Source: Candidatus Magasanikiibacteriota bacterium (GTDB lineage: Bacteria > Patescibacteriota > Patescibacteriia > Magasanikbacterales > GWA2-37-8). Taken from it: a DNA stretch of 50,471 nucleotides. The notes beneath the pieces were generated by a model that did no database searches, had not been told where the DNA came from, and saw nothing but the letters and a program-made list of their open reading frames with translations. The position numbers and the translations under genes are program-made. The stretch lies in assembly GCA_023246715.1 (NCBI GenBank), contig JAHFHZ010000004.1:1-50471 (forward strand), given 5' to 3'. Of the stretch, positions 4,132 to 50,057 are shown piece after piece. The number at the start of each line of letters is the position of its first letter. The first letter of the stretch is position 1.

Positions 4132-4218
4132 ACACAATATCTCTATGTTGTTATTATGTTACAACACTATATACATAGTTGTCCACATCATCTAGGATAA
4201 GTTTACAAGGAGGTAGTG

Positions 4219-4842
4219 ATGAGAAACATGCAAGATCCCAAGAACTGGCTTCTACTCCCGCCGGGTGATACGTTGCTCCTGCGCTTCCCCGCGCCGGAGA
4301 TCCTGCCGGGCACCGAGCTGGCTTCGTCGCGCGACATTCTCGTCGCCAATGGCGGAGCCGCGTTTCCCTGGGGTCGGCTCCCGAAGCCCCAGCCGAATGA
4401 CCACCTGTGGCATGAGCATCGTCTCGGCACGGGTGGGCTTTACCACGTGGCATGGTTCGTGTGCCGCGAGGGCCGGGTGGGTGGGGCGCCGAACGTTCCG
4501 GAGGATTTGCCGGGCTCACTGCGTTCTGGCCTCTACCTGGACGGCGGCAGCTCGCCCGAGGGTCTCGCAGACAACGAGGGCTACGCCCTGGTCAAGCCCG
4601 CGAGCGATGCCGACCGGGACATGTACCGCCTCGTCATGCTGCATGCACAGCGGCACATCATGGCCGACGGCGGCCTGCTCATCGTGACCCCGATCGATGA
4701 GGGCGGCATCGTCCACGTCGGCTTCGGCGGGCGCTGCAGGAGCTGCCCAAACCCGCTGCTCATCACCATCGAGCAGCTCCGGGTGGCGGTGCCTGGCTAC
4801 CGCTTCGAGCCGCTGCCTGAATGGCAGAACTGGCAGGCCTAG
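4219..4842 (+). CDS. GC-rich cassette: protein with C-terminal NifU/Nfu-like CxxC domain
   Basis: AAGGAGGT SD 4207-4214; C-terminal GIVHVGFGGRCRSCP..LITIEQL resembles the NifU-C consensus; GC-rich codons. Confidence 0.7.
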   Translation: MRNMQDPKNWLLLPPGDTLLLRFPAPEILPGTELASSRDILVANGGAAFPWGRLPKPQPNDHLWHEHRLGTGGLYHVAWFVCREGRVGGAPNVPEDLPGSLRSGLYLDGGSSPEGLADNEGYALVKPASDADRDMYRLVMLHAQRHIMADGGLLIVTPIDEGGIVHVGFGGRCRSCPNPLLITIEQLRVAVPGYRFEPLPEWQNWQA

Positions 4843-5063
4843 CCTCCTCGTGCCGCCGACACGTTAAATACCGGCCCCCTATCTTGCTAGCAAACAGGGC
4901 AAAAGACCACCGTCTTATTACGGAGTGGTTTTTTGTTTAAAGGTAGAGCTGATCGGCTTAAAAAAATTGGTTCTGAATCTATTGGTATTTTTTGATTCAA
5001 ATAAAATTCATGACAAGAGGGTACATTTTTTGTTATACTCAACGTACTAAGCACATAAATAGT

Positions 5064-5417
5064 ATGTCAAAACATCGGATCTATACCATGAACTTCGCCA
5101 GCGTGTACCCGCTGTATGTCGCCAAGGCCAAGAAAAAAGGGCGGACCAAGACCGAAGTCGATGAGATTATCTGCTGGTTGACCGGGTATAGCCAGAAAAA
5201 ACTCGAAGCCCAGCTGGCCAAGCAGTTAAACATCGAGGCTTTTTTTGCCAAAGCTCCACGACTGAACCCCGCGCGGGCATTGATCAAAGGTATTGTCTGC
5301 GGCGTGCGCGTCGAAGACATTGCCGACCCGCTGATGCGTGAAGTCCGTTACATCGATAAACTAATCGACGAGCTGGCCAAAGGAAAAACGCTGGACAAGA
5401 TTTTGCGAAAACAATAA
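5064..5417 (+). CDS. DUF2200 family protein
   Basis: [56 protein letters not shown]. Confidence 0.88.
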
Positions 5418-5476
5418 AACAAAAAAGACGCCACCCAGCGTCTTTTTTAATTTTTCTTCTGCTAGAAAAGGTTCGT

Positions 5477-5857
5477 TTACACTTCTTTTCGGCGGGCCAA
5501 TCTCCAGTGAAAGGCAAACAGGGGGGCGCCGACCACGATAAACGAAATATCGCGAACCAAATCACGCTGGCGCTGGGCTTCGCGATTTTCGATCTCGGAT
5601 TTTTTTTGTTCTTCCTGATCAACACGGCATTTTTCCTGGGTAGTAGCGGTGTTCTCGCCCGCTGTCGGTAGCGGGCAGGCCGACGCGCTGGAGTAATAAC
5701 TGTAATTATCCGCTTTGGTGAAAACGTATGTTTTTAAAAGCGTACTTAACAAATCAACCGCTGAAATCACCATCATCATTAAGGCCACAAACGATACCAC
5801 GTACAAATAGAGCGTTTTAATAAACATGGATTTTGTGTTTACCGCGGGCGTTTCCAT
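5477..5857 (-). CDS. DUF5671-like two-TM membrane protein
   Basis: IKTLYLYVVSFVALMM...FIVVGAPLFAFHW pattern common in CPR. Confidence 0.75.
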   Translation of the reverse strand: METPAVNTKSMFIKTLYLYVVSFVALMMMVISAVDLLSTLLKTYVFTKADNYSYYSSASACPLPTAGENTATTQEKCRVDQEEQKKSEIENREAQRQRDLVRDISFIVVGAPLFAFHWRLARRKEV

Positions 5858-5936
5858 ATGGTGATACATTATTAAATAAAACAATAAAATGTAGAGAGGG
5901 GTGCCGGGCTTGTTGCGCCAGGCGGGGGAGTGGGTG

Positions 5937-6680
5937 TTAATCGATGATCGCGCCCTGGCGATCGATGATCACACCAAGGTTGCGGGCCGTGCCGGATTTG
6001 GGGATCTTGGCCCCCAGCCGCCCGCGTCGCCGGGCAATCCGTTCAGCCATTTCGTCCCACCATGGGAAGCTGGCCACCTGCATATGGTAGTGCTCGTTCA
6101 CCAGGTGGTGCGGCCGGTGGCGCTTTCGCACCGACAGGATAATCCAGCGCCAGAGGCCACGGCGCTTGGGCACATAGTGTGGGCAGTGGCCGCCCAGATA
6201 GTGCAGCGTCTCGTAGCTCAGGACGCGCGTGAGGATTGTGAGCGCCGCGGTGAGCGCGTAGCCGATCCCGAGCGTAGGGCCGAAGACCGCTAGGCAGCCC
6301 CCGATCACGCCGCAGGGAATCCAGCGCATGATGCAGTCGGGGATGAAGATATCTTGGGGATTGTCGGGGTCGGCATGGTGCAGACGATGGCTCTGCGCGC
6401 CCGCCAGATCGGGGAGTTGCCAGGCGCGGCCCCAGAACCGAATTGTGCGCGGTCGGTAGTGCAGGTAGTTACGGTGAAAGTAGTATTCCACCGGCGGGCC
6501 GAGCGGCAACAAGGCCGCGATCAACACCGGGTGCCAGACCGTCCAATGCCCCCAGCAGATACGGATAAACGCCAGTAGAACAATTGAGCTGACGAGCACG
6601 CGCGGGCTGTGCCGCCGGTACATTTCGGTCAGCCCCTGCCCGAGGGTGGTGATTGGGCGATGGTTCCGTGACTGCGTCAT
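5937..6680 (-). CDS. GC-rich cassette: sterol desaturase / fatty-acid hydroxylase family di-iron membrane enzyme
   Basis: His boxes EYYFHRNYLH, HRLHH, YETLHYLGGH, HRPHH; GAAAGGA SD before ATG 6680. Confidence 0.85.
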   Translation of the reverse strand: MTQSRNHRPITTLGQGLTEMYRRHSPRVLVSSIVLLAFIRICWGHWTVWHPVLIAALLPLGPPVEYYFHRNYLHYRPRTIRFWGRAWQLPDLAGAQSHRLHHADPDNPQDIFIPDCIMRWIPCGVIGGCLAVFGPTLGIGYALTAALTILTRVLSYETLHYLGGHCPHYVPKRRGLWRWIILSVRKRHRPHHLVNEHYHMQVASFPWWDEMAERIARRRGRLGAKIPKSGTARNLGVIIDRQGAIID

Positions 6681-6791: not shown

Positions 6792-7775
6792 TTAACGGAT
6801 ACCAACCAGTTGGCGCACCGTCTGCATCGTCGCGGCGGCGACTTTTTGGGCTTTACGCGCGCCAGTTTCCAAAATACCGTGCAACTGTTTGGGGTTAGCT
6901 AAGAGTTCTGCTCGCCGCGCCCGGAAATCCCTAAAATAATCGCCAATCGAACGGGTTAATTCCTGTTTCAAATCTCCATAGCGGATCGTACCATCCTTTT
7001 CGGACTTGGCAAATGTATTATAGGCCTCGGCCGAGCCAAACTGTTTTAAGAGCAGTAGCAAATTCGCCGCGCCGGGCGCCTGGCCGCCGCCCTCGGTGGC
7101 CGTCACCGCCTTTTTCAGTTTCGTTTCGATTTGCGTGGGCTCTTCGCAGAGTTCAATTACATGCCCAGCGCCAAGCGACTTGCTCATTTTTTTGCTTGGT
7201 TCCAAGAGGCTCATGACCCTGGGGAGCTCGGTGAAAATAGGTTTGATCATTTGAAAATACTCGCCATACCGTTTGTTAAACAATCGGACAATATCATTCG
7301 TCAATTCCAAATGCTGCTCTTGATCTTTGCCCACCGGTATCAGCGCCGGTCGATAGAGTAAAACGTCGGCCGCTTGCAAAATCGGGTAGGTTAAAAGCCC
7401 GGCATTAATATTTTTTTCTTGCTGAACCGACTTGTCTTTAAATTGCGTCATGCGCTGCAATTCCGCGATTGGAGTAATGGAGTTAAAAATCCAGGCCAAT
7501 TCAGTATGTTCGGCCACGTGTGACTGTACGAAAAAAGTAGTTGATTCAGGATCAATGCCGAGCGCCACTAGTTCGGCCGCCAGTGTTTGAATTTTTGTTC
7601 GCCGTTCATCGGCCGAGTCTTGGCCGGTTAACGAGTGATAATCCGCGATAAAAAAATAACAGTCGTATTGGCCGCTATTTTGTAGCTCCACCCAATTCTT
7701 CACCGCGCCCAAGTAGTTTCCGATATGCAAATTCCCCGTGGGTTGGATGCCCGAAAAAATTACCGGTTTAGCCAT
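6792..7775 (-). CDS. trpS: Tryptophan--tRNA ligase
   Basis: SGIQPTG.LHIGNY, YPILQAAD and KMSKS motifs. Confidence 0.97.
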   Translation of the reverse strand: MAKPVIFSGIQPTGNLHIGNYLGAVKNWVELQNSGQYDCYFFIADYHSLTGQDSADERRTKIQTLAAELVALGIDPESTTFFVQSHVAEHTELAWIFNSITPIAELQRMTQFKDKSVQQEKNINAGLLTYPILQAADVLLYRPALIPVGKDQEQHLELTNDIVRLFNKRYGEYFQMIKPIFTELPRVMSLLEPSKKMSKSLGAGHVIELCEEPTQIETKLKKAVTATEGGGQAPGAANLLLLLKQFGSAEAYNTFAKSEKDGTIRYGDLKQELTRSIGDYFRDFRARRAELLANPKQLHGILETGARKAQKVAAATMQTVRQLVGIR

Positions 7776-19345: not shown

Positions 19346-19789
19346 CTACTGCTCGGTCAGGCAGTTGCCCGAGACCTGTACCAGGTCTCCCGCCTTGAGC
19401 GGGGCGCTGGGATCGATCGCGAGCGCGATGGTCTTTTCGAACGCCGCGCTGGCATCGCTCACGACCTGCTGGCCGGCCTGGCGCAGGTCGCGCTGGCCGA
19501 GGATGCGGAACTTGGCGTCGGGGCCATCGCAGGCCATGCTCTGCTTCTTCGGGGACTCGCTCCCGACGGGAGTGGCGCACTCGAGGTCGTAGTAGACGGT
19601 CCCGAGCACGAACCGCCGCCGCACGCTCACGTGCGGGCCACCACCCTCGCCCTGCTGCACGCGCATCATACAGTTGGCGTAGGGCGGGGTCTCGGGCGCG
19701 GTCGTGTCCGGGCGGACGTCGGTGTGGCAGGCGCCGAGGGCGAGGCTCGCGGCAAGCGCCGCGGAAAACAAGGTCTGGGACTTCCGCAT
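19346..19789 (-). CDS. GC-rich cassette: predicted lipoprotein
   Basis: AGGAG SD; MRKSQTLFSAALAASLALGA|C lipobox; promoter TTGACA-17-TAAAGA (19856-19828). Confidence 0.8.
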   Translation of the reverse strand: MRKSQTLFSAALAASLALGACHTDVRPDTTAPETPPYANCMMRVQQGEGGGPHVSVRRRFVLGTVYYDLECATPVGSESPKKQSMACDGPDAKFRILGQRDLRQAGQQVVSDASAAFEKTIALAIDPSAPLKAGDLVQVSGNCLTEQ

Positions 19790-20191: not shown

Positions 20192-20728
20192 ATGAAGCGC
20201 TCCAGCGATCCCTCTGCCACCACCACCCCGGCTTCGCAGTACGACGACCGCGACCCGGCCTTTGACGATGGCGGGGTCTTCGGCCTCGGGCACCGCCCGC
20301 CGCGTTTGATGATCGGGGCGATCCTGCCCCACGAGTCCTCGCCGACCTGCCCGCGGGAGCCGCCCCGGCCCGCCCGCCCCCGGGCGACTCCGCCCGCGGC
20401 CCTGCCCCGCCCAGCCTTCTCTGGCCTTGCCGGGTTGCTCTTCAGCGGGCCCGCCGCTCCCGCCCGGCCTCGGCAGGATGCCCGCCCCCCGCTGTCGGCG
20501 CCCGCCCGCCCCACCGTCTTTCCGGGAGGAACCGCTCCCGGGCAGTCCCTGGCCGCCCCGGGCGACAACGAGCCCTCGACCGATCTGCCGCGTCTCCCGG
20601 CCCCGGTCCGGCAGCTCCCGCCCACCGAGTGGGCGTTGAGCTGGCCCGAGCGAGTGCTCATCCTGGCCGCGGTCGTGGTCGTGCTCGGCTTCGTCGGATC
20701 GATCATCTACGCGGCCTTCGTCCCCTAG
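20192..20728 (+). CDS. GC-rich cassette: Pro-rich protein with C-terminal TM anchor
   Basis: AAGGAGG SD; promoter TTGCAA-17-TAGGTA (20131-20159); C-terminal VLILAAVVVVLGFVGSIIYAAFV. Confidence 0.72.
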   Translation: MKRSSDPSATTTPASQYDDRDPAFDDGGVFGLGHRPPRLMIGAILPHESSPTCPREPPRPARPRATPPAALPRPAFSGLAGLLFSGPAAPARPRQDARPPLSAPARPTVFPGGTAPGQSLAAPGDNEPSTDLPRLPAPVRQLPPTEWALSWPERVLILAAVVVVLGFVGSIIYAAFVP

Positions 20729-24213: not shown

Positions 24214-24711
24214 ATGTCTTTACAAGCAAGGTCACGACTTGCGGCGCTAGTGTTTGTGGTGTCCTGTTCGGCTGTCTCACAACAGGTTGCTCCAGACAAC
24301 GCGCTCGATTCCGGCCAGCTAGGGAGCCCAACCTACCCCCACGGGCTCAATACCAGCAACTTCCAAAATCCTGGATCGGTTGATTGTGAGACGCTCGAAG
24401 GTGTTTCTGGTCGCTACTTCCGTCTGTTTGCGAACAGGTTGCCTGGCCAGCCCCGCCAGGTTTTGGTTCAGTGCAGGGACGGGGTGAAGCTCTTGGGATA
24501 CTGTGAAGGCTCCATGAATGTAGACACTTCCAATGTGGAAGTCGTCGAAAAGCACTACTTTGGCGGGTACAATGGCCGGCCAGCCGGTGCAGTTAAAACC
24601 CAGGATGCCAATGGCAACCAGGTGGTCAGTGCGCGAGGGGCTGACTATGTGGTAAGCCCAGGCAGCCCCGAGGTGGTACAGCTCAGCATGATCTGCACTA
24701 ATCGCAGCTGA
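24214..24711 (+). CDS. Cassette between fusA and tuf: secreted/lipoprotein
   Basis: Promoter TTGACA-17-TAGGAA (24157-24185); AAAGGAG SD; RLAALVFVVS|C; four further Cys. Confidence 0.72.
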   Translation: MSLQARSRLAALVFVVSCSAVSQQVAPDNALDSGQLGSPTYPHGLNTSNFQNPGSVDCETLEGVSGRYFRLFANRLPGQPRQVLVQCRDGVKLLGYCEGSMNVDTSNVEVVEKHYFGGYNGRPAGAVKTQDANGNQVVSARGADYVVSPGSPEVVQLSMICTNRS

Positions 24712-38053: not shown

Positions 38054-38175
38054 AAAATAATCACCAGTATTTTCTCACCCGCCGTTAAGGCGGTTTTTTA
38101 TTGACAAAAAAATATGTCGAGAGTACGATATAAAATCGTTCCTTGACGCCCCACTTGCTAGTGAGGAGGCCTGGT

Positions 38176-38460
38176 ATGTCGCCCCCCAGTTCGTTTGTTA
38201 ACCGCTCTGATCAGCTTTCAATTACGAAACTCCCCACTACCTCCAAAATTGAGTATCATAAAAAACACCCCTGACGGGGGGTATCTTTTATGATAGCAGA
38301 TTTATTGCTTTTAGGGGGTTTCGTAATTCAAAGCTTAACCAAGGGGCCGAAGACGATGAGGCCCAAAGTTGGCTCCGCGGTGCGGGCGGCCCCGCCGCCG
38401 TTATGGTCGCGGTTGCTCCTCGTACGATCTGTGCCTGTAGCGCCCGTCCGCGCGGCTTGA
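38176..38460 (+). pseudogene. GC-rich cassette gene interrupted by MITE-like insertion
   Basis: Promoter TTGACA-17-TACGAT (38101), GAGGAGG SD, ATG 38176; GC-rich coding-like sequence resumes after 38335 and ends at a TGA followed by a C-rich tail. Confidence 0.5.
38213..38335. mobile_element. 123-bp MITE-like element with 22-bp terminal inverted repeats
   Basis: AGCTTTCAATTACGAAACTCCC ... GGGGGTTTCGTAATTCAAAGCT (20/22 match); second copy at 31-104. Confidence 0.72.
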
Positions 38461-38504
38461 ACCCCTCAAGCCGCTTCCCTCAATGCTTTCTGCTTGTACC
38501 AAGA

Positions 38505-38653: not shown

Positions 38654-38923
38654 AGAAGAGCGCACGGGGGAACTAAAACCTTAAAACCGGCTATTAAAGC
38701 TGTTTTTTGTTTTATTCAATTGTTTTACTCAATACTATTGACAAATTGCCAAAAATGTGCTAAGATAAGCGGTTGTTCTTTACATTTTGGCTTACTACGG
38801 CCCTGAAAACGGCCTGAAATACGCACGATTTACCTTTGAATATCAACCTCAAGGGTGAATCGTGCGTATTTGGTCGCCGGTTGAGAAGCCGGCCAGGAAT
38901 TGGTGCTTTCAAGGAGGTCTTTG

Positions 38924-39514
38924 ATGCCACAGACAAGCAGCCCCACTCCGAACGACTCGTTCCAGCAGTGCAACGGCAAGTGGCCCGGCGGCAAGCGCTG
39001 CACCAGGCAGCAGGAGCGGCTCCACTGCCCCGAGCACCTCGAGCAGATCCTGCTCGCGGCTCGCTTCGCCAACGAGGAGGACATTTCCCCCGGGGAGATG
39101 TTCTGGTATCGGTACAGCGTGAGCGGGCCCCGGATCTGGTTCCTCACATGTGAGGACCGGATCGAATTCGCCGACCCCCCGGCGCTGCCCGCCGGCTGCG
39201 GCCCCAACGACCGCGCCGCCGCCGAGCAGAGCGCCCTCGAGCGTCCGCGCCAGATCAATCGCGCCGCCCCGCCCCAGCGGCCCCGGCGCGACGATCAGCG
39301 CCCCGCCCGCGAGCGCCTGCAGCAGCCCCACCCCGTGCAGATGCCGGATCGGCCATTCCGGCCGCTCGTGCACCGCCTGGCGGCTGAGCCGAGCACCCCC
39401 GAGCAGCGCTTCGCGCAGCCGGTCACGACCACCATACGTAGCCCCCGCTACGCCGTGTTCGCCCCGACGCTCGCTCGCCGCCACGGCGGCCCCAAGGGCA
39501 ACAACGACCGGTAG
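38924..39514 (+). CDS. GC-rich cassette between secY and adk: putative Zn-finger (QCxG..RC..CxxH) plus Arg/Pro-rich tail
   Basis: Promoter TTGACA-17-TAAGAT (38738-38766); AAGGAGGT SD; 39181-39240 has 50/60 G+C. Confidence 0.72.
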   Translation: MPQTSSPTPNDSFQQCNGKWPGGKRCTRQQERLHCPEHLEQILLAARFANEEDISPGEMFWYRYSVSGPRIWFLTCEDRIEFADPPALPAGCGPNDRAAAEQSALERPRQINRAAPPQRPRRDDQRPARERLQQPHPVQMPDRPFRPLVHRLAAEPSTPEQRFAQPVTTTIRSPRYAVFAPTLARRHGGPKGNNDR

Positions 39515-39708
39515 CCCCGCTTTCGGCAGCCAACGCCCCTCACGCCCACCCCGCGGCTCCCCAAAGCCGCGCTCCAAATAGCAATTTCTTTCTAAATTAA
39601 AGAGGAATTTCTTCTGGGGCAGAGGTCGTTAATCCGCTTAAAAATCATTCCAAACGGAGTGATTTTTTTGCTTGTCAAAGCAGGCGATTTTTGATAGCCT
39701 GAAACAGT

Positions 39709-41239: not shown

Positions 41240-41243
41240 CGCT

Positions 41244-41651: not shown

Positions 41652-41653
41652 GT

Positions 41654-42379: not shown

Positions 42380-42444
42380 ATTTGTGGAGTTCGCTGCGTA
42401 ATGTTATGCTGATTTTTTAGGGTAGTTCAATTATTGTGCCACGT

Positions 42445-43737
42445 ATGAACGTATCTATTTCGGAGTTTAAAGATTATGTCGGGCAAGCAGTTACTGTTTC
42501 CGGCTGGTTATACAACAAACGCTCGTCCGGACCGATCGCTTTTTTGGAGCTGCGCGACGGCAGTGGTTGGACGCAGGCCGTGGCCGTGCAAAAGTCCCTA
42601 TCACCCGAAGTGTGGTCCGCGGTGGAGCAGGTAACGCAGGAATCGTCGGTAGTGGTCACCGGCACGATTTCTAAGCATCCCAAAAAAGAAAATATTTTTG
42701 AGCTACAGGTTGCTGATCTGCGCATTTTGCAGCTAGCCACCGAATACCCGATCGCCAAAAAAGATCATGGCCCGGATTTTCTGATGGATAATCGCCACCT
42801 CTGGCTACGCAGCCGCAAGCAGTGGGCAATTCTGCGTTTGCGCGACTCGATCATCATGGCGATTAACATATATTTGCACCAGGAGCGGTTTATTAAAATT
42901 GACTCCCCGATTTTTACGCCCAACGCCTGCGAAGGCACCACCACGTTGTTCTCGGTACCGTATTTTGATTTAGGAACCGCTTACTTGTCTCAATCTGGTC
43001 AATTATATATCGAAGCGGCTATTGCCTCGGTAGGGCGTTGTTACGATTTTGGCCCTGTCTTTCGCGCGGAAAAAAGTAAAACCAAACGCCACTTGACTGA
43101 ATTTTGGATGATGGACGCCGAAGCAGCTTTTGTGGAGCATGCCGGCAACCTGGCACTGCAGGAAGGCCTAGTGCGTTTTATCGTGCGCTATTGCCTGGAA
43201 CATTGTCTGGAAGAATTAACGATTCTGGAGCGAGATGTTGAAAAATTAAAATTGGCCGATAATCCGTTTACCCGCTACGGCTACGACGAAGCGATTAAAA
43301 AATTAAATGAACTTGGTTCGGATATTAAGTACGGCGAAGATCTGGGCAATGATGATGAAGGACTCTTGACCAAAGACAGCACCGTGCCGGTGTTTATCGA
43401 AAAGTGGCCCAAAGGCATCAAACCGTTTTACATGAAGCGTGATCCGAACAATCCCGAATTGGTTTTGAATGATGACTTAATCGCCACCGACGGTGGAGGA
43501 GAATTAATCGGCGGCAGCCAGCGCGAGGAAAATGTTGATTTGCTGATCGCCCGGATGAAAGACGAAGGGTTAAATCAGGCGGACTATGAATGGTATTTGG
43601 ATACCCGTCGGTTTGGCAGCGTGCCGCATTCCGGATTTGGTATCGGGCTTGAGCGCACCGTGCGTTGGATCGCTGGGGTGGAGCATATTCGGGAATGTAT
43701 CCCGTTCCCGCGCACGATCGGGCGCTTGCGGCCGTAA
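42445..43737 (+). CDS. asnS: Asparagine--tRNA ligase
   Basis: FLELRDGSG, YLSQSGQLY, FRAEKSKTKRHLTEF, PHSGFGIGLER. Confidence 0.95.
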   Translation: MNVSISEFKDYVGQAVTVSGWLYNKRSSGPIAFLELRDGSGWTQAVAVQKSLSPEVWSAVEQVTQESSVVVTGTISKHPKKENIFELQVADLRILQLATEYPIAKKDHGPDFLMDNRHLWLRSRKQWAILRLRDSIIMAINIYLHQERFIKIDSPIFTPNACEGTTTLFSVPYFDLGTAYLSQSGQLYIEAAIASVGRCYDFGPVFRAEKSKTKRHLTEFWMMDAEAAFVEHAGNLALQEGLVRFIVRYCLEHCLEELTILERDVEKLKLADNPFTRYGYDEAIKKLNELGSDIKYGEDLGNDDEGLLTKDSTVPVFIEKWPKGIKPFYMKRDPNNPELVLNDDLIATDGGGELIGGSQREENVDLLIARMKDEGLNQADYEWYLDTRRFGSVPHSGFGIGLERTVRWIAGVEHIRECIPFPRTIGRLRP

Positions 43738-44002
43738 CAAAATTTCTTAACATCACTCTGCTAAGAGTGGTGTTTTTTTGATTTTCTTTAAGCTTCTTAA
43801 CTAAATGTAGGCACCCTTTTGGTGCCAAAATGGTGCCGCCTAAAAGCACCGAGCGGTTCTCGCTTGGTATGACCCGGATTCTTCGCAACGCTCCTCATCA
43901 TTTCGTGTCATATCCTCGCTCGACAAATGCTCGGGAATTTTTGGTGAAATCGTTTTGTTACAAAAGGTATTCCGCCGCAGTCATTCAGCTTATTTCAAAA
44001 CT

Positions 44003-44092
44003 GTCATGCCCACCCCCACTTTTGTGAGGGTAAACTCCAGTGGGAATCCAGGTTTGGCTTACCGACTGGATTCCCGCCTGCGCGGGAATGAC
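44003..44092. repeat. dRS3/REP-like palindromic repeat
   Basis: GGGAATCCAG..CTGGATTCCC and ATTCCC-N8-GGGAAT (44070-44089). Confidence 0.75.
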
Positions 44093-44207
44093 CCGACTTA
44101 ATTTTAAACATGACTTCATTGACACTTTTCTGCTTTCCTGCTAAGCAACCAGGTAACTTGGACGCAAAATGACACTGGGTCATTTTGTTCCCCAAGAAGG
44201 AGGCCCC

Positions 44208-44750
44208 ATGTCCAGAACGCCTGCTCTGTATTGTGCCTTCGCCTGCCTGCTGGCTGTGCCCGCTTGCGTCGCCCCTGGCTTCGTCGGCATCGAGCGTGCT
44301 GCGGCCGCGCAGGCCCAGAGTGAGCCGCGGCTCACCAGCTACCTGCCCGGTATCGATCTGATTGGCACCCCGGCGGCTCAGCGGCCGCTGCCGATGGTCG
44401 AGGAGGTGGTGGAGACCGTGCCCGATGAGGCGATCGGCGGCATGAACCACCGCGAGCGCCTGGTGCTTCGGGGCCGTTGCGAGACCATCCTCGGCGCGGG
44501 CGGCCAGCGCTTCTTCATCGTCATCAGCCACGACGGCTCTCCCGAGGTCCGGCCACACTGGAACATCATGTGCGCCGACGGTTACGTCCGGGTCTCGTGC
44601 CCGCCGGGCCAGCAGAGCAGCCTCATGAGCCTGCCCGAAGAGCAGGCCACGCGCCGCTGCGCCAACTTCGAGAACTGGCACTTTATCTTGCCCACCGAGG
44701 GCGAGATCGATTCCGATGGCATCTTCCAGCTCGTCCACGCCTGCCGCTGA
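44208..44750 (+). CDS. GC-rich cassette: secreted Cys-containing protein / possible lipoprotein
   Basis: Promoter TTGACA-17-TAAGCA (44119-44147); AAGGAGG SD; hydrophobic N-terminus LLAVPA|C. Confidence 0.75.
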   Translation: MSRTPALYCAFACLLAVPACVAPGFVGIERAAAAQAQSEPRLTSYLPGIDLIGTPAAQRPLPMVEEVVETVPDEAIGGMNHRERLVLRGRCETILGAGGQRFFIVISHDGSPEVRPHWNIMCADGYVRVSCPPGQQSSLMSLPEEQATRRCANFENWHFILPTEGEIDSDGIFQLVHACR

Positions 44751-44902
44751 GCCAGGCATGCAAACAATATCCCGCCCGGGCGCTCGTCGCTGCCACCGAG
44801 CACGAGCGCCTCCCGATCATTAATTTTATCGCTGAATAAAGCGATTTTTTTGTTTTATACGGCATTTTTACCCACATATATCCACTTGGCGCATACCTAG
44901 TC

Positions 44903-44970
44903 TGCCATCCCCGTGAAAACGGGGATCCAGTACTGTGTGTGGGCTGGATTCCCGCTGGCGCGGGAATGAC
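44903..44970. repeat. dRS3/REP-like palindromic repeat
   Basis: ATCCCC-N8-GGGGAT (44907-44926) and ATTCCC-N8-GGGAAT (44948-44967). Confidence 0.75.
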
Positions 44971-45116
44971 AATGTGTGATTAGGCGTGGACTACGTACAT
45001 ATATTTTTATCCCCAGTCCGAGAGCGGCCCAATCATTGACAAAGCTCTATTTTTATGTAAGGGTAGAGCCAAGTCGCGTCAATGCGGCGAACCCCAACGT
45101 TAGAGGAGGTCTCCTA

Positions 45117-46202
45117 ATGCGATCCAGATCGTCTCCCCCCAGCCATCTGCTGTCCGCCGCCTTCGGGCTCCTGGCCCTGCTGGCCGCGCCCGGCCTGGCC
45201 GAGGCCAAGCAGATCTTCGTCGGGCCTTACCACGACGTGAGCAGGGCAGTCGTGGACAAGCCGCTCACGGCCAAGGAGAAGCTCGCCAAGTGCGCCAGCG
45301 ACAGCGCCTTCACTCTCGATGACTGCCAGCGGATGTTCCTTGTGCCGTCCGCAGCCACCACGAAGCAAGATGTGGATCTGCAGAAGGCCAAGACCCGAGA
45401 GGAGTCCGCCCGCGCGGCCCAGCTGAAGGCGGCCACCAAGGGCGGGGCCCAGAAGATCGAGGTGAACAACAACGCCACGTCTAACTCCGGCGGGAACAGA
45501 ATTCAGGCGACCTCGATCACCGAGGCAGTCCTGGGCCGCCGCGTCATCGCCTGGACCAACCTCCCGCGCTACGGCATGGGCCTCTTCGTTCCGGTGCGCT
45601 TCGAGCTCCGCAACGACGGGAACGACGCCCGCCAGGAGGCGATCGCAGTCGGCGTGGGCGTCGAGGCCCACGGCGGCATCTTCAGTGTGATGGAGAGGAG
45701 CGTCGTGTTCGCGTGGTATGGCGAGTTTGCCTGGCTGCGCGGCTCCCAGCTTACGGTCTCGGCGTTCGACGCCGCGACCTCCACGGTCAGCAGAATCACG
45801 GGCGGCACGAAGGCCGACCACCTCACCGTCTCCTTCGGTCTGGATCTGCTCGCCGGCAAGCTCGTCGGCGCCAAGCTGGGCTACGTCTACGACTACCGCG
45901 CCTCCTCTGTCGATGGCCCCGACGAGAACCTGCGCGGCATCCCCTCGACCGGGTCTCACGGAATGCGTGCGGCCCTGCGGATCGTTCCGTTCGGTTGGGG
46001 GCACCAGATATCCTTCGATCTATTCAACTGGAAGGAGACCTTCTACCCCACCAACCCCGACAACCCCGCCTACATCAACTACCAGGCGACCCCGGAGCAG
46101 CCCGCGATGAAGGCGACGGCCGTGCTCCCGAACGGGCCGCTCGTGACCACGAACTTTTTCAAGGTCATGATGACCTACCGACAGGACTTCAACTTCCTGT
46201 AG
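45117..46202 (+). CDS. GC-rich cassette: signal-peptide protein with probable C-terminal outer-membrane beta-barrel
   Basis: GAGGAGGT SD; signal peptide ending GLAEA|K; alternating amphipathic strands; terminal TYRQDFNFL. Confidence 0.7.
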   Translation: MRSRSSPPSHLLSAAFGLLALLAAPGLAEAKQIFVGPYHDVSRAVVDKPLTAKEKLAKCASDSAFTLDDCQRMFLVPSAATTKQDVDLQKAKTREESARAAQLKAATKGGAQKIEVNNNATSNSGGNRIQATSITEAVLGRRVIAWTNLPRYGMGLFVPVRFELRNDGNDARQEAIAVGVGVEAHGGIFSVMERSVVFAWYGEFAWLRGSQLTVSAFDAATSTVSRITGGTKADHLTVSFGLDLLAGKLVGAKLGYVYDYRASSVDGPDENLRGIPSTGSHGMRAALRIVPFGWGHQISFDLFNWKETFYPTNPDNPAYINYQATPEQPAMKATAVLPNGPLVTTNFFKVMMTYRQDFNFL

Positions 46203-46437
46203 GCCCCACCCCCCGCCGTCCCCTCGACCCCCTCCGCAGCCCATGGCTCGCGAGCGGCTCCAGGCACGGCACTTCTCCCAAATGTCTAAATCAAGCCAAA
46301 CTGGTTTGGAAAGTTGGGAAAACGCAAAACCGCTCTCGCCCGAGGCGGTTTTTATTTTTTTAAAAACTTCCTTAGTCGTGTACAAACCCTTGCTTTTTTT
46401 AAATCCCTGTGGTAGGTAAGTAATCAAAGGAGGCTCA

Positions 46438-47082
46438 ATGAAAAAAGATTACGATCGTCGCAAAGTTCTTGGCCTGCTTGGTAAGCTCACTGCGGCCCTT
46501 TGTCTGGCACCATTAACCGGCTGCTCTATCTTCCGTGGGGGCCAAGACGATTCATTAACCGGCGGTGGTTACCTAGACACCAAGACCGGCTGGGTGCGTC
46601 TGCCCGACGGGACTTTCACCGACGACGGTGACGTGTATCGTCAGGCGGTCAAACAGTTGAAGGAGAACCACCAGGTGCCCGCTGGCGGGCATTGCCCGAC
46701 ACCCGCCGTGCTCGGTAGCACCTCGGGAAACTTCGCCAACTTCCCCTGGGACGCGTCCTTCTGCAACGGCCTGTGCCCCGTTTGCGGGAAAGCTCCACTC
46801 ATTCAGCTCCGGAGCGAGTACTTCCCGCTCGGCGAAGATGGCGACGGACAGTCGCCGCCGATGTACAAGACCTATGGAGCATGTGCGGACCCCAGCTGTT
46901 TAAGTGGCGGCCAGGAGCAGTATCTGCCGGGCTCCAAGCGCCCCGCGCCCGCGCCGCGCACCATAAACGTGGATGGCGCGTTCGTGTACCCGCTCCCGGC
47001 CGGGGGCTGGTTCATGCCGCGGCTGCCCATGCCGGCTGGAATCCGGTTCGTCATTCCGCTCCGGCCCGTCTTCGTGCCGTAG
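46438..47082 (+). CDS. GC-rich cassette: Tat-type lipoprotein, Zn-ribbon family paralog 1
   Basis: AAAGGAGG SD; DRRKVL..LTG|C; CPVC..C; VYPLPAGGWFMPRLP. Confidence 0.8.
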   Translation: MKKDYDRRKVLGLLGKLTAALCLAPLTGCSIFRGGQDDSLTGGGYLDTKTGWVRLPDGTFTDDGDVYRQAVKQLKENHQVPAGGHCPTPAVLGSTSGNFANFPWDASFCNGLCPVCGKAPLIQLRSEYFPLGEDGDGQSPPMYKTYGACADPSCLSGGQEQYLPGSKRPAPAPRTINVDGAFVYPLPAGGWFMPRLPMPAGIRFVIPLRPVFVP

Positions 47083-47134
47083 CACCCGGTTCAGCCTTCC
47101 ACCACCAACCGCCGACCTCACCAGTCGGCCTTAG

Positions 47135-47170
47135 AACCCTGTTTTAAAAATTTTTAAAACAGGGTTTTTA
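47135..47170. terminator. AT-rich palindromic terminator
   Basis: AACCCTGTTTTAAAAA/TTTTTAAAACAGGGTT perfect palindrome plus T-run. Confidence 0.65.
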
Positions 47171-47260
47171 TTTTAACTAGTTGACCAAAGTAGCCGGGCG
47201 TGTTAAGACCGGAGCAGATTAACGGGGCAATCAAGCCCCGCATAGTAGGAAGGCCAGACC

Positions 47261-47857
47261 ATGTGCACTCGGCAGAGCGTTCTTTGTTCCCCCTTCATTC
47301 TCCTGGTCGTTTTTGCCAGCAGCTGTGTCCGCTTGTTCGGCGGCGAACAGGGAGACACGGGCGAGACTAAAATAACCGCGCCCTATGTCGAACCCAAAGC
47401 CGCCTGGGTTTGGGATGGACAGGAGTACCGTGAAGCGTCTCGCTCCGAGATCAACGATGCCATCGACAAGATGGCGCATGATCAGCACGGCCACGGCCGT
47501 ACGTTCGCCGCTCCGCTCGGGAGCGTGAGCGGCATCCCGGTTGTTGACCTGGTCTGCCCGTCGTGCGGCGAGGGGAAGCTCTCGCTCAACCTGATCTCGG
47601 AGTACTATCCCTTTGGGAGTGATCCCAAAAATGGCAATGGCCCGCCTGTTTACCGGACCTACGGAACGTGCGACAAGTGCGGCCACAGCCATTACATCAA
47701 GGGAACCGAGCGCCCGGCCCCCCCGCTCCAGAGTGAGCGCGTGGGTGGAACGATCGTCTACCCGCTACCAGCCGGGGGCTGGTTCATGCCGCGGCTGCCC
47801 GCTGGCTTTCGCCTGCCGGGTTTGCGCCCGGTTATTCCCGAGTTCGCCCTGCCCTAG
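47261..47857 (+). CDS. GC-rich cassette: lipoprotein, Zn-ribbon family paralog 2
   Basis: Promoter TTGACC-17-TAAGAC (47181-47209); FASS|C; CPSC..CDKC; VYPLPAGGWFMPRLP. Confidence 0.8.
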   Translation: MCTRQSVLCSPFILLVVFASSCVRLFGGEQGDTGETKITAPYVEPKAAWVWDGQEYREASRSEINDAIDKMAHDQHGHGRTFAAPLGSVSGIPVVDLVCPSCGEGKLSLNLISEYYPFGSDPKNGNGPPVYRTYGTCDKCGHSHYIKGTERPAPPLQSERVGGTIVYPLPAGGWFMPRLPAGFRLPGLRPVIPEFALP

Positions 47858-47979
47858 TTCTTTGGTACGTCACCAGGCGTTCCCGCTCGTATTGACGCAA
47901 TTCGTCGAACGTGCTAGGAATAGTCAGTCTCTCACAGGGCTCCTTTCGGGAGCCTTGTATCATTCCCAAGGAGATGTCC

Positions 47980-48636
47980 ATGTGTAACCGACGCAACCTG
48001 CTCCAAGCAATCGGCCTGCTGCCTTTTGCGCCCCTTGTCTCGGGGTGTCAGCAACTCTTCGGCGAGGGCGCGGCAGATCGCGGGCCCAACTCCCCGCCCG
48101 CCCCCTATGTCGACCGCAAGTTCGGCTGGGTGTGGGACGGCCAGGTCTACCGTGAAGCGTCGGCCAAAGAGATCGATGAGTTCATCGAGCAGATGACGCA
48201 AGAACAGTTCGGCCACGGCCGGCTGTTCATGGCCACCGGCAGCGTCGCTGCCGACCCGATCAAGCTGCCCGACGGCACCTGGCAGCTCCCGGGCACGCTC
48301 ACCGGCGTCCCGTGTCCCATCCCGGACTGTGACGGAACCTTGGTCGACATCAATCAGCGCCAATACTATCCCTTCGGGCGCGATAGCGACGGTGACGACG
48401 ACGGCTCGTCGGCCGTCAACGTCAGATTCGGCCAGTGCAACAGGTGCCTCTCCAGACGGGCGCTCCCCGAGCGCTTCGATGAGAAGGCCGAGCCGCTCAA
48501 GAGCCAACGCGTGAACGGCGCAGTCGTCTACCCACTGCCCGCGCCAATTGGCGGCTGGCTGTTGCCGCGTCTGCCGGCCGGTATGCGCCTGCCCACGCTC
48601 GGCCGCATTCCCATACCGCGGTTCGCCGTTCCCTAG
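47980..48636 (+). CDS. GC-rich cassette: Tat-type lipoprotein, Zn-ribbon family paralog 3
   Basis: Promoter TTGACG-17-TAGGAA (47892-47920); AAGGAG SD; NRRNLL..VSG|C; CPIPDC..CNRC; VYPLPAPIGGWLLPRLP. Confidence 0.8.
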   Translation: MCNRRNLLQAIGLLPFAPLVSGCQQLFGEGAADRGPNSPPAPYVDRKFGWVWDGQVYREASAKEIDEFIEQMTQEQFGHGRLFMATGSVAADPIKLPDGTWQLPGTLTGVPCPIPDCDGTLVDINQRQYYPFGRDSDGDDDGSSAVNVRFGQCNRCLSRRALPERFDEKAEPLKSQRVNGAVVYPLPAPIGGWLLPRLPAGMRLPTLGRIPIPRFAVP

Positions 48637-48759
48637 GCTACCGCGCAGCTCCGCCGCCTGCTGACCTGTCAGCACCTCGGCCCCTTTCCCGAATTGCTCA
48701 ACAAAATTATGAGCAAATCGGGAAAGGGCAACGAAATCAACGCCCTGTGAGGAGGTCCC

Positions 48760-49500
48760 ATGCGCGTCCGTTCCTTGCCTCTCAACCTCGTGCTGCTCGC
48801 CCTTGCGGTCGGCACGCTGCCCGGTTGCAGCTTCATCGACAGACTCGGCCGCGAGATGACCGCCCGCGGCAATCAGGTGAGCCAGCTCTACCAGAAATGC
48901 CAAGAAAAAGTGGAGGGCGCCTGCGATGCCTGGATCCAGTGTTCACAAAGCGGCGTTGACGACTGCCGCAAGCTCGCCTCGGTTCAGCCGATCCTTGGCA
49001 GTCCGCCCGCGGTGAGCGGCCTTTTGCGCTTCGGCAGGGGAGGCGGCGCGGCGGGTGGCAACAACGGCGACGAGTGTGATCCGCCCGGCGAACGCGAGTG
49101 CTCGGCCAGCCCCGACGGCCGCCACCACTTCGTGGGGAAGATCCCCCCCACGTATCGGTTCTTCGTGAAGAAGGACAACACCTGCTGGCGTCAAGCGCTC
49201 GAGGACTGCGAGTACTGCCACACCACCTACATCGGCAACGCTAGCGAGGAGCAGATCACCTTCCCGCAGATCACCTCTGCGGTGGGGCAGGCTGCGGCTG
49301 CCAAGGAAGCCCTCGCCAAAGCGGCCGGAGGGATGCCTGCGCAGGCGCTCCTTGAGCTCCTCGCCGCCGGTAACAAGGCCGGTTTCGAGGCCAAGATCGC
49401 CGAGAGCTACTGGAGCCACATTTTTGAGGCTCAAGACAACGCCGAGACCTCGGCTGACCGCCACGGCCTCACGCCTTGCGTCAAGCACGTCAGCGACTAG
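48760..49500 (+). CDS. GC-rich cassette: Cys-rich lipoprotein with CxxCH motif
   Basis: GAGGAGGT SD; LALAVGTLPG|C; CEYCH. Confidence 0.78.
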   Translation: MRVRSLPLNLVLLALAVGTLPGCSFIDRLGREMTARGNQVSQLYQKCQEKVEGACDAWIQCSQSGVDDCRKLASVQPILGSPPAVSGLLRFGRGGGAAGGNNGDECDPPGERECSASPDGRHHFVGKIPPTYRFFVKKDNTCWRQALEDCEYCHTTYIGNASEEQITFPQITSAVGQAAAAKEALAKAAGGMPAQALLELLAAGNKAGFEAKIAESYWSHIFEAQDNAETSADRHGLTPCVKHVSD

Positions 49501-49667
49501 GCCATCTCAGTCAATCTTGACAAATTGCTCATAGACCCCTACAACGAGGAGCTTTGTCCGACCTGCGGGCCAGGCTCCCTCGCCATATGCCCTTTACAAC
49601 ACCATCCCAAAGTAATCCAAGCGCTGAAAATCTTCAGCTCTAAGACAACTTTGGGAAGGAGGCCACC

Positions 49668-50027
49668 ATGCGTATCGCTGCCAAGCGCACCTTGATTGGT
49701 GTTGCGATCATTCTGGGCCTTGTCGCTTGCGCCTGGGCCGCTCTGAAGAAGCCTGCCGCTGCGCTCCCCACCGAGGTGCGCTGGAGTGATGTGACCCTGC
49801 CACCCTCCACCACCACCTGCGCCAAATACAGGCTGTGGGAGGTTCCGCCCGTGGACCAGGCCGAGCAAGCCGCTGACCCGCGCACGGCCGAGAACCGCTT
49901 CTTTCAGCGCGGTTGCGATGCCCGCCGCGTCACAGATGCTCGAGGCCATCGGGTGTTTCGGCTGCCGGGCGACCCGCTCATCTGCTGCACCAAGAATCCG
50001 GCCCTGGCTGCCGGCCCCAACCCCTAA
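49668..50027 (+). CDS. GC-rich cassette: small exported/membrane-anchored Cys protein
   Basis: Promoter TTGACA-17-TACAAC (49517-49545); AAGGAGG SD; N-terminal hydrophobic segment. Confidence 0.72.
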   Translation: MRIAAKRTLIGVAIILGLVACAWAALKKPAAALPTEVRWSDVTLPPSTTTCAKYRLWEVPPVDQAEQAADPRTAENRFFQRGCDARRVTDARGHRVFRLPGDPLICCTKNPALAAGPNP

Positions 50028-50057
50028 CCCCTGCCGACCTCTCGCGTCGGCCCCATC

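Follow-up and report, generated by a model that had tools for sequence, protein, structure and literature searches.

A dispersed class of GC-rich, Shine-Dalgarno-led single genes in a Candidatus Magasanikiibacteriota genome

Introduction

Scattered among the ordinary genes of a 50,471-nt contig from a Candidatus Magasanikiibacteriota bacterium (JAHFHZ010000004.1 of assembly GCA_023246715.1) are single genes that are far richer in guanine and cytosine (GC) than their surroundings, which raises the question whether these cassettes were recently imported, are meant for expression in another cell or are a class of genes that the bacterium itself maintains. A first-pass annotation, made from the letters of the contig, had listed 14 of them and proposed that they are formatted for expression by a GC-rich host, with repeated moron-like gene capture as the alternative. 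The contig, in the following called the window, was analysed at its full length, to which all window positions refer. It is contig C37 of a source bin (G000; 44 contigs, 1,058,102 bases) from groundwater metagenomes, which represents a ~1-Mb genome with 49.0% GC, 92.8% completeness and 1.16% estimated contamination. Its SecY reaches a top identity of 74% among 40 relatives, and the nearest named records belong to Ca. Komeilibacteria (61%), Yanofskybacteria (53%) and Staskawiczbacteria (52%); because of these named relatives, the assignment to the candidate phyla radiation (CPR, Patescibacteria) made in the first-pass annotation holds. The reading that we favour, and to which we give an even chance, is that the cassettes belong to a class of long-kept accessory genes that are expressed by the CPR cell itself and whose style is held by selection on the transcript or on translation.

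Results and Discussion

The GC-rich genes form a separate class across the genome

Comparison of all genes of the genome by GC content at third codon positions (GC3) and by the Shine-Dalgarno (SD) sequence, in line with an earlier suggestion, revealed a separate class with about 50-60 members, i.e. ~4% of the DNA. Seventy-six GC-rich islands amount to 42,097 bp on 31 of the 44 contigs, with a longest continuous stretch of 1.9 kb, and 130 of 4166 segments of 500 bp reach a GC of at least 0.60 and form a separate shoulder of the genome-wide distribution. This GC signal lies far beyond chance. The 49 confident island genes have a GC of 0.667 ± 0.031 and values of 0.65, 0.51 and 0.84 at the first, second and third codon position (GC1, GC2 and GC3), compared with 0.56, 0.41 and 0.53 in the backbone genes.

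The GC edges at the cassettes are sharp. In a meta-profile, the opening 20 nt of the open reading frame (ORF) have a GC of 0.50 and the 20 nt after them one of 0.59; the remainder lies at 0.67-0.70, apart from 0.63 over the final 20 nt. Beyond the stop codon, values of 0.60-0.67 continue for ~60 nt before dropping to 0.42-0.50, and upstream of about position -60 they are 0.44-0.52. The C-rich tail that had been described for the cassettes was recovered genome-wide, the first 80 nt past the stop codons of the 49 island genes containing 37% C and 22% G. An SD of at least 5 nt precedes the first start codon of 23% of the high-GC3 genes compared with 4% of the backbone genes and 4% of random positions, and 66% versus 17% of the high-GC3 and backbone genes if the best of six starts is taken. 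Backbone genes thus have an SD at chance level, and SD frequency is a step function of GC3, with 2-6% of the genes below 0.65 and 40-45% above 0.70. Many of the island SDs read AAGGAGGT, followed by CC(C). The island genes end in TAG (30), TAA (16) or TGA (3), the backbone genes in TAG (192), TAA (551) or TGA (136), and backbone TGA use persists in long genes.

A lipobox motif was found by a motif scan in 19 of the 49 island genes and in 18 of 879 backbone genes (~30-fold enrichment), and about half of the predicted lipoproteins of the genome belong to the GC-rich class. Among 42 distinct island ORFs, five match a Pfam family above the cut-off (DUF4407, Trypsin, DUF3865/haem-oxygenase-like, pentapeptide repeats and His_Phos_1), and three more have sub-threshold matches (NifU, FA_hydroxylase and Shikimate_DH). 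The ribosomal and elongation-factor genes favour AAA (0.74), GAA (0.87), ATT and TTG, while the islands use AAG (0.83) and GAG (0.80), and for this reason the idea that the island codons are the optimal codons of the cell was rejected. The genome also holds 45 low-GC3 genes without an SD, which makes three compositional classes.

The GC-rich style is maintained in at least two families

The property that appears to set this class apart from known compositional islands is the persistence of its style. Judged from comparisons with relatives, the GC-rich style has been maintained in at least two families, and the evidence is suggestive for three more. The first family is represented in the window by the following gene:

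5937..6680, minus strand: FA_hydroxylase / sterol desaturase-like cassette, 247 aa, GC 0.64, GC3 0.81, TAA stop

Its FA_hydroxylase match is sub-threshold (30.7 bits, cut-off 31). The cassette sits directly downstream of the gene for tryptophanyl-tRNA synthetase (TrpRS; 6792-7775, minus strand), and three genomes of genus g7 (G067, G006 and G068) have this gene order as well. Between the genera, TrpRS is 75-76% identical and the cassette 36-43%. At identical residues the same codon is used with a frequency of 0.43-0.45 in TrpRS (0.38-0.39 expected) and of 0.35-0.38 in the cassette (0.41-0.42 expected), i.e. at or below expectation in the latter, and since same-codon use is close to expectation, synonymous sites are near saturation. 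The GC3 of the cassette is nevertheless 0.81 in G000 and 0.70-0.73 in g7, next to a TrpRS with 0.55 and 0.45-0.51, respectively. Within g7 the cassette co-diverges with TrpRS (0.89/0.89, 0.76/0.88 and 0.76/0.84). Drift after a genus-level acquisition could give about 0.70 within g7, but it cannot give 0.81 in G000 if the cassette dates from the common ancestor.

The second family is the target of a diversity-generating retroelement (DGR). The only reverse transcriptase (RT) of the genome belongs to a complete DGR located outside the window (C7:11996-14479, which equals L160:2997-5480):

L160:3456-3576: variable repeat (VR), 121 nt, which ends an island gene; this DGR target gene has GC 0.68 and GC3 0.91
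L160:3940-4060: template repeat (TR), 484 nt downstream; all TR/VR mismatches lie at TR adenines
L160:4080-4502, minus strand: Avd, 62.7 bits (cut-off 80)
L160:4476-5480: RT, matching several reverse-transcriptase models, all below their cut-offs

Here Avd and RT have a GC of 0.39-0.40 compared with 0.68 for the target. Modules homologous to this DGR were seen in 10 or more further genomes of the order. The ten full-length or near-full-length target homologues, which come from genomes of two taxonomic families, are 40-61% identical, and all of them are richer in GC than the rest of the locus (0.52-0.67 vs 0.32-0.51; GC3 0.60-0.91); the eight that match from residue 1 share an upstream leader ending in an SD, and most end in TAG. 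Where RT and Avd lie within the fetched loci (six genomes including G000), they have a GC3 of 0.23-0.53 beside targets at 0.75-0.91, and RT is 65-69% identical where the target is 52-53%. Such opposite compositions within one co-inherited module cannot be explained by neutral drift towards the composition of the host genome. The DGR or its RT was rejected as the cause of the GC-richness, since there is one RT and one 121-nt TR/VR pair, and nothing beyond the mRNA-end-like edges of the cassettes supports a retro-capture of host mRNAs.

Seven queries were searched in the 239 other genomes of the order. The DGR target was found in 32 of them (10 full-length or nearly so), DUF4407 in eight, the FA-hydroxylase-like protein in seven, the trypsin-like protein in two and the zinc-ribbon lipoprotein profile in two (G068 and G011), while the lipoprotein encoded at 48760 occurs in one (G068, two copies, 32-36% identical), where the stretch around it is GC-rich over its whole length, so that this case is ambiguous. 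No homologue of the 4219 protein was found. The DUF4407 homologues (22-28% identical) have a GC3 of at least 0.74 in six of the eight genomes, and no synteny was found around these copies. The trypsin-like homologues have a GC of 0.60 next to flanks of 0.45 in both genomes, the FA-hydroxylase-like homologues are GC-rich in four of the five measured (two short matches were left out), and the zinc-ribbon lipoprotein family has a GC of 0.60 in G068 and of 0.50 in G011, compared with 0.35-0.40 in neighbouring core genes. The statement that diverged paralogues keep the GC-rich style could be validated and extended to orthologues across genera and families. The relative of the tandem lipoproteins of the window in G068 (L036:9908-10507) lies in the fusA-tuf gap and the G011 copies (L035:6002-7991) downstream of a class II aminoacyl-tRNA synthetase, as in the window; this family moves between slots.

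The class extends beyond these families. In 40-kb stretches around secY of ten genomes of the same family, one of them closed and with a backbone of 44% GC, we found islands of 0.62-0.77 GC with SD-led, often lipobox-bearing genes, and ten further genomes (nine from other families of the order and G022 from the same family) showed fewer islands with a crude gene caller. The GC-rich class is order-wide. In the stretches of 22 relatives, the gaps between helicase and rpsL, fusA and tuf, and secY and adk have lengths between 26 nt and 7 kb; GC peaks of 0.60-0.82 are frequent in them, and some are empty in some relatives (26-127 nt). The class evolves fast, differs between genomes and occupies recurring gaps that separate conserved core genes.

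No close donor was found

If the cassettes were recent arrivals, close relatives should exist elsewhere. Among 5.8 billion clustered proteins, which are described as including Logan assemblies of public runs and may include those of the groundwater study behind this genome, the 361-aa protein of the window (45117..46202) matched only itself, and it was found in none of 40 relatives. Outside homologues of the FA-hydroxylase-like protein are at most 35% identical (best 30-35%), and one 35%-identical match, a sterol desaturase named as from a Myxococcota metagenome-assembled genome, is the only pointer to the Myxococcota-like host suggested in the first-pass annotation; those of the trypsin-like lipoprotein are at most 33% identical. 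A profile of the tandem lipoproteins, searched against 1.84 billion representatives, gave 25 proteins at E ≤ 0.001. Three of these are the queries and ~10 are lipobox-bearing relatives of similar length from metagenomes (26-50% identical), while the remaining matches are long repeat proteins in which one short stretch is aligned. The sources of the metagenome relatives are JGI, Logan, ENA and a single NCBI record, with contigs no longer than 57 kb, and their amino-acid make-up is not discriminating. A search of genome and metagenome contigs for loci related to this lipoprotein family gave no match. The 6.3-kb array at the end of the window has no blastn match in plasmids or phages. From these searches we conclude that the cassettes are not recent imports from a sampled donor.

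These results bear on a recurrent import of single genes from donors of ~67% GC that use SDs and are probably diderm, perhaps the host lineage itself, with fast turnover, mostly young copies and repeated uptake of the same useful families into the same gaps. We consider this scenario unlikely, but a number of findings speak for it. The tight GC of the islands (0.667 ± 0.031), with GC1 and GC3 as expected of a genome of 62-69% GC according to regression coefficients, points to such donors, and so does a codon use opposite to that of highly expressed genes. Twin-arginine-like signals, a barrel-like protein and C-rich tails occur without TatC, Omp85 and Rho, and few SD-led genes have an intermediate GC3. 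The families are patchy (0 to 8 of the 239 other genomes), the gaps fusA-tuf, secY-adk and helicase-rpsL are variable with frequent GC peaks, ComEC and pilus ATPases are present, and a tRNA gene borders the array. Furthermore, PMC12455944 reports many islands and transferred genes in aquifer Patescibacteria, which we count in favour of import.

Several observations stand against this scenario. Searches with four families, three of them against 5.8 billion proteins and the fourth by profile against 1.84 billion representatives, gave no close donor, and no multi-gene island with GC-rich spacers exists. The DGR target is GC-rich beside a low-GC RT and Avd within the same co-diverging module in six genomes, and the TrpRS-linked cassette keeps its place across genera, diverging in step with TrpRS within one of them. 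In GC-rich bacteria TGA is usually the dominant stop codon, whereas in the island genes TAG exceeds TGA 30 to 3. The earlier alternative of repeated moron-like capture is likewise weakened, both by the lack of a close donor for four families and by at least two families that stay GC-rich although they are inherited in place or as part of a module. Individual families may still go back to ancient transfer, and a mixture is likely, in which families entered long ago from GC-rich diderm donors and have been kept in that format since.

The members of the class in the window

Apart from the TrpRS-linked cassette given above, the window carries the following cassettes and associated features:

4219..4842, plus strand: cassette gene, 207 aa, GC 0.67, GC3 0.83, SD AAGGAGG, TAG stop
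19346..19789, minus strand: lipoprotein gene, 147 aa, lipobox LGAC, GC 0.70, GC3 0.92, TAG stop, no Pfam family
20192..20728, plus strand: Pro/Ala-rich gene, 178 aa, hydrophobic C-terminus, GC 0.75, GC3 0.88, SD AAGGAGG, TAG stop, C-rich tail, no Pfam family
24214..24711, plus strand: lipoprotein-like gene of intermediate GC in the fusA-tuf gap, GC 0.56, GC3 0.61, SD-led, TGA stop
38176..38274, plus strand: SD-led ORF of 32 codons, not GC-rich (GC 0.44), among dispersed repeats
38738..38766, plus strand: promoter-like site (TTGACA, 17 nt, TAAGAT, with TG), a consensus match only, ~155 nt upstream of 38924
38924..39514, plus strand: cassette gene, 196 aa, in the secY-adk gap, GC 0.72, GC3 0.91, TAG stop, C-rich tail
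44208..44750, plus strand: lipoprotein gene, 180 aa, GC 0.68, GC3 0.86, TGA stop
45117..46202, plus strand: gene of 361 aa, Sec-type signal peptide, strand-rich C-terminal part, GC 0.65, GC3 0.89
46438-47082, 47261-47857 and 47980-48636, plus strand: three tandem paralogous lipoprotein genes, all ending in TAG
48760..49500, plus strand: lipoprotein gene, 246 aa, GC 0.65, GC3 0.82, TAG stop
49668..50027, plus strand: lipoprotein gene, 119 aa, GC 0.66, GC3 0.75, TAA stop, hairpin and T run downstream

On re-reading, each of the 14 starts of the first-pass annotation proved to be an ATG that opens an ORF, and its spot counts of G+C were exact (50/60 at 39181-39240 and 21/60 at 28861-28920). The GC-rich style applies to 12 of the 14 (GC 0.62-0.75, GC3 0.73-0.92), with the gene at 24214 being intermediate and the ORF at 38176 not GC-rich. 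A similar picture emerged for the purine-rich SD, since GGAG or better lies upstream of 12 genes and only weaker purine runs precede those at 6680 and 47261. Nine of the genes end in TAG and three in TGA, as described for most of them, and two end in TAA. The units are single genes with backbone-like flanks, and none of the 15 backbone ORFs scanned in the window belongs to an integrase or transposase family, both as stated before.

The first-pass annotation gave most cassettes a promoter of their own. The promoter-like pattern TTGACN-N16-18-TANNN[AT] is present in the 320 nt preceding 16 of the 49 island genes; in the backbone it precedes 103 of 879 genes, and in random sequence 101 of 2000 stretches have it. 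Strict sigma-70 matches at 37900-50471 are not above chance overall (8 vs 5.2 ± 2.3 expected). Downstream of cassettes, terminator-like hairpins with T runs lie on the plus strand at 39640 (39640-39667, 3' of the gene at 38924), 44828, 46336 and 47133. Around the small ORF at 38176, which is possibly a remnant or a leader, there is a promoter-like site at 38101-38129 and a hairpin at 38267.

The lipobox genes of the window, again by motif scan, are those at 19789 (minus strand), 44208, 46438, 47261, 47980, 48760 and 49668. The tandem lipoproteins are 37-43% identical to the first one in the alignment, and each of them carries a CxxC...CxxC arrangement and a C-terminal VYPLPxGGWxxPRLP motif; two of them (46438 and 47980), as well as the product of C10:23608, have an RR in the n-region. 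The NifU match of the 4219 protein (21.1 bits) is under the cut-off of 27. For the 361-aa protein, look-alikes in the ESM Atlas are barrel families (feature score 0.93, TM score 0.34-0.48), which are leads only, and a single-sequence AlphaFold model was too poor to be used (pLDDT, the predicted local distance difference test, 36.6); its outer-membrane-barrel-like character is a lead from language-model features.

From 44 to 50 kb, seven same-strand, single-ORF and mostly unrelated units stand in a row. Palindromic repeats flank the 44208 gene at ~44040-44090 and ~44910-44970. Together with a copy at 38500-38630, these palindromes, which resemble repetitive extragenic palindromic elements, have a summed contig depth of ~100-620 compared with ~7 for the backbone in both metagenomes, and many contigs link the 44.9-kb and 44.06-kb copies via differing short spacers, so that they look like a repeat family common to many organisms of the community.

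The cassettes are not an assembly artefact

The edges of the cassettes could, in principle, be produced by assembly or binning, with pieces of a GC-rich organism stitched into CPR contigs. The genome is indeed a metagenome bin of 44 contigs with 1.16% estimated contamination, and several islands lie close to contig ends. However, Logan contigs of the probable source sample match the window exactly at 38604-39251, 39251-44078 and 44063-44911, and those of a second sample at 39217-40124, 45784-46783 and 48908-49666, and all six spans cross junctions between cassette and backbone. The two samples belong to one study, so that this check is independent of assembler and sample but not of the site. 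Moreover, the inserts are sharp-edged single genes within conserved operons, and the same pattern recurs in 20 or more other genomes, among them the closed one-contig relative G019. A chimeric assembly was therefore rejected, and the residual probability that we assign to an artefact is negligible.

The contig ends are accounted for by a separate dispersed repeat of ~120 nt, which ends in the motif GGGGTTTCGTAATTCAGAGCT and is present in 37 copies (up to 4 mismatches), often as inverted pairs. It lies ~100 nt from many contig ends and at the tips of about 20 contigs of the genome, and the fragmentation of the assembly is due to it; islands as the cause of the contig breaks were rejected, since ~20 tips share the 120-nt repeat. 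In the window it occurs at 84-104, 38213-38233 (minus strand) and 38315-38335. C4:1-120 and C27:1-120 have an identical tip formed by this repeat and then diverge, each meeting a different GC-rich SD-led gene within ~150 nt. Near island genes the repeat is not enriched (5 of 37 copies within 600 nt vs 2.75 ± 1.6 expected). A shared carrier module of the cassettes was rejected as well, because an all-versus-all BLAST of their flanks found only adjacent overlaps and dispersed repeats.

The cell itself can probably read the cassettes

Next to the claim that the cassettes are expressed by a host stood the claim that their products need machinery which CPR bacteria lack. The 16S rRNA was read as had been suggested, and its 3' end carries a canonical anti-SD (...GATCACCTCCTTTCT). 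The genome encodes lgt (LGT, 150 bits) and lspA (Peptidase_A8, 75 bits), both of backbone-like GC, and with these genes one half of what the first-pass annotation had named as speaking against its own proposal is present. TatC, Omp85 and Rho were not found in this 92.8%-complete genome, and to this extent the claim about the machinery stands. TatC occurs in 4 of 100 genomes of the family; in G052, G111 and G063 its GC is 0.31-0.39, i.e. backbone-like or lower and outside the GC-rich class. A VirB4-type transfer ATPase was not found in the genome, ComEC and three PilB/PilT-type ATPases are present, and so is prfB. Among the 43 tRNAs are species with C34 or G34 (Lys-CTT, Glu-CTC, Gln-CTG, Leu-CAG, Leu-GAG, Pro-CGG and Pro-GGG). 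Gene content thus suggests that the lipoproteins have native machinery, whereas the Tat-like n-regions, the barrel-like protein (itself a lead only) and the C-rich tails do not.

We regard it as very improbable that the cassettes are formatted for a GC-rich host and expressed there after DNA or RNA transfer, or that their products are handled by Tat, Bam and Rho of the host, in what would be a bacterial equivalent of T-DNA. Such a scenario would predict a selected dialect, and the dialect is kept over deep time; the class shows Tat-like signals, a barrel-like protein and C-rich tails although TatC, Omp85 and Rho were not found, and the island codons are non-optimal for the CPR cell. However, host expression is unsupported by what the genome holds, since an anti-SD, lgt, lspA and G/C-decoding tRNAs are all encoded by the cell itself and no VirB4-type ATPase was found. 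The flanks are promoter- and terminator-like in the manner of the backbone and have neither border repeats nor any other sequence in common, the genes are spread over 31 contigs without a transferable block, and one member is wired to and diversified by the DGR of the symbiont itself. To our knowledge, there is no precedent for this among bacteria. A related idea, very unlikely but a shade less so, is that selection holds the foreign-looking format because the transcripts or products act in or at a GC-rich host, with the symbiont carrying a dispersed set of host-formatted genes, or, in a milder form, that SD-free housekeeping genes are set apart from an SD-dependent, switchable and GC-rich surface regulon.

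A proposed explanation and what weighs against it

If the class consists of long-kept accessory genes of the CPR cell, each member would be its own transcription unit, with a backbone-type promoter that has an extended -10 box and a leader that is not GC-rich. A near-perfect SD (AAGGAGGT) would pair with the 16S tail of the cell and be followed by a GC-rich ORF (GC3 ~0.84), the first 20-40 nt of which are less GC-rich and which usually closes with TAG; after the stop there would be a C-rich tail of ~60 nt, often with a hairpin and a T run. The products would mostly belong to the envelope, i.e. lipoproteins, secreted or membrane proteins and one DGR variable protein. While the backbone seems to start translation without an SD, the SD-led GC-rich mRNAs would be handled separately and are probably the more stable class, given that a GC-rich structured mRNA amid the translation of AU-rich leaders would need a strong SD, and that such an SD, combined with a GC-rich body and a hairpin at the 3' end, would make for a long-lived message. 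We infer selection on the mRNA or on translation because the GC step starts inside the ORF, ends with a strand-asymmetric tail and spares the predicted leader; the selective cause itself, mRNA stability or a separate translation class, is conjectural.

A native class could also be kept GC-rich by a process at the DNA level, either GC-biased gene conversion or recombination that is mutagenic, acting at hot spots at which naturally competent cells go on exchanging accessory genes; protein divergence would then be faster as well. The location of the cassettes in recurrent variable gaps between conserved core genes, the presence of competence genes, the fast evolution (the FA-hydroxylase-like protein is 36-43% identical where the neighbouring TrpRS is 75%) and the rise of GC1 and GC2 along with GC3 are in line with such a process. 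We nevertheless consider it improbable. Leaders predicted from consensus promoters in the same transcription units have a mean GC of 0.49 compared with 0.67 for the ORFs (n = 16), in agreement with the meta-profile, and the 3' tail is strand-asymmetric (C 37%, G 22%), unlike a symmetric conversion bias. The flanking core genes, in which the recombination tracts would lie, are not GC-rich (GC3 of fusA 0.57, tuf 0.63 and secY 0.56), a 30-point rise in GC3 is far above what is generally reported for biased gene conversion in bacteria, and the excess of TAG over TGA would be unexplained. A cause at the transcript level is preferred over a bias at the DNA level because the GC step, judged from promoters predicted by consensus, seems to follow the ORF and its tail rather than the whole transcription unit.

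A number of observations weigh against long retention under selection in the CPR cell. Only one paralogous group exists among the 49 island proteins, and the island codons differ from those preferred by the cell. The step-like link between SD and GC3, with few intermediates, would also fit a fast gain and loss of imports, and the RR n-regions, the barrel-like protein and the C-rich tails look like relics of diderm GC-rich donors. The searches of 5.8 billion proteins require shared 5-residue words and similar length, and donors could be unsampled. For the strongly diverged TrpRS-linked pair between the genera, replacement in the slot by another homologue would be an escape route. The homologues of DUF4407 and FA-hydroxylase in G076 and of DUF4407 in G178 are not GC-rich, and the lipoprotein in G011 has a GC3 of only 0.43. 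The test of maintenance covers a minority of the island genes, and the 4219 and 361-aa proteins have no homologues in the genomes searched. Finally, the metatranscriptome of the source sample (one run) covers only repeats and tRNA and says nothing about expression.

Comparison with known systems

Like genomic islands and phage morons, the cassettes are single genes with promoter- and terminator-like flanks, deviant GC and codon use and a location in variable gaps, many of them encoding lipoproteins, and one array adjoins a tRNA gene. Unlike morons, they lie outside prophages, without a phage match, a phage gene nearby or mobility genes, and their neighbours are ribosomal-protein, tRNA-synthetase and similar core genes. 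They differ from recent genomic islands in the lack of a close donor, and their deviant composition, which ordinary drift would erase, has outlasted synonymous saturation in at least two families. As to the syntenic sites, some gaps are empty in some relatives, while the TrpRS-linked cassette occupies its position in another genus too. The seven same-strand single-ORF units at 44-50 kb, with their deviant composition and many orphans, resemble an integron array. Most cassettes are dispersed, however, and each has its own promoter-like site and terminator (hairpins at 44828, 46336 and 47133). No integron integrase was found: of two Phage_integrase matches, the full one is best matched by XerC/XerD (~220 bits), with 103 bits for the IntI model (cut-off 265). 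Reading of the 49 tails, which contain C-rich runs and assorted hairpins, and the BLAST of the flanks revealed no shared attC-like core. Lacking IntI and a shared attC-like element, an integron was rejected.

SD-independent translation with a conserved anti-SD is a feature of Bacteroidota and some Cyanobacteria. The backbone resembles the Bacteroidota type in that its SDs are at chance level although the 16S rRNA keeps CCUCC; the difference lies in the defined minority with a very strong SD, its own composition and its own stop preference. The TTA genes of Streptomyces that depend on bldA form a codon-defined regulon, and here, too, an accessory subset is written in codons that are rare in the genome, which could tie its expression to particular tRNAs or conditions; in our case, the whole ORF and not one codon is recoded, and the tRNAs for the codons are present. 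The T-DNA of Agrobacterium, the sole analogue for the idea of host-formatted genes, likewise consists of symbiont genes with foreign-looking signals and composition, but no transfer borders or type IV secretion ATPase were found here, the genes are scattered, and the cassette signals (a sigma-70-like promoter and an SD) would work in the symbiont itself. With regard to DGRs, one member of the class is a target with VR, TR, adenine-specific mismatches, Avd and RT; it is one of 49 island genes, and the ~120 nt that are rewritten cannot explain the GC-richness of whole genes. Full-text searches of the literature gave no description of such a class, and PMC12455944 does not contain one, though its supplements may list such genes.

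Outliers in base composition are routinely read as recent transfers. A class that persists breaks the logic of drift towards the host composition and suggests that nucleotide composition in CPR bacteria is subject to selection on particular genes or to a targeted bias. It also calls for caution in screens of CPR genomes for horizontal gene transfer or contamination that are based on GC or codon use. As it holds about half of the predicted lipoproteins and the DGR variable protein, the class is likely to represent the host-contact surface and may provide a sequence-only handle on interaction genes of uncultured symbionts, as well as a test system for SD-free and SD-dependent initiation coexisting in one cell.

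The backbone of the window

The first part of the window contains a cation-efflux gene, a TrmB-like regulator in a stretch of 38% GC, DUF2200 and TrpRS. Next come genes for a SPOUT methyltransferase, for TGT, for a YadA-head-repeat protein of 1417 aa, for a TPR protein and for a UvrD helicase, followed by the rpsL-fusA-tuf-S10-spc-secY block, adk, map, a recO-like gene, a class II aminoacyl-tRNA synthetase of the D/K/N type and tRNA-Leu; the names of the ribosomal block, adk and map were read from the translations. The tRNA gene, which is the sole Rfam match in the window, borders the 44-50 kb array:

50382..50466, minus strand: tRNA-Leu(CAA)

The stretch at 2100-4200 has a GC of 0.38-0.39 and holds the TrmB-like regulator (3316-4137, minus strand) as well as an ORF without a family (2400-3044). 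The 1417-aa protein (10578-14831), which has an N-terminal hydrophobic segment and backbone composition, is a probable large surface adhesin. Elsewhere in the genome, the 16S rRNA match (C11:13366-15098) spans 1733 nt for 1533 model positions, which indicates an insertion of ~200 nt in the gene.

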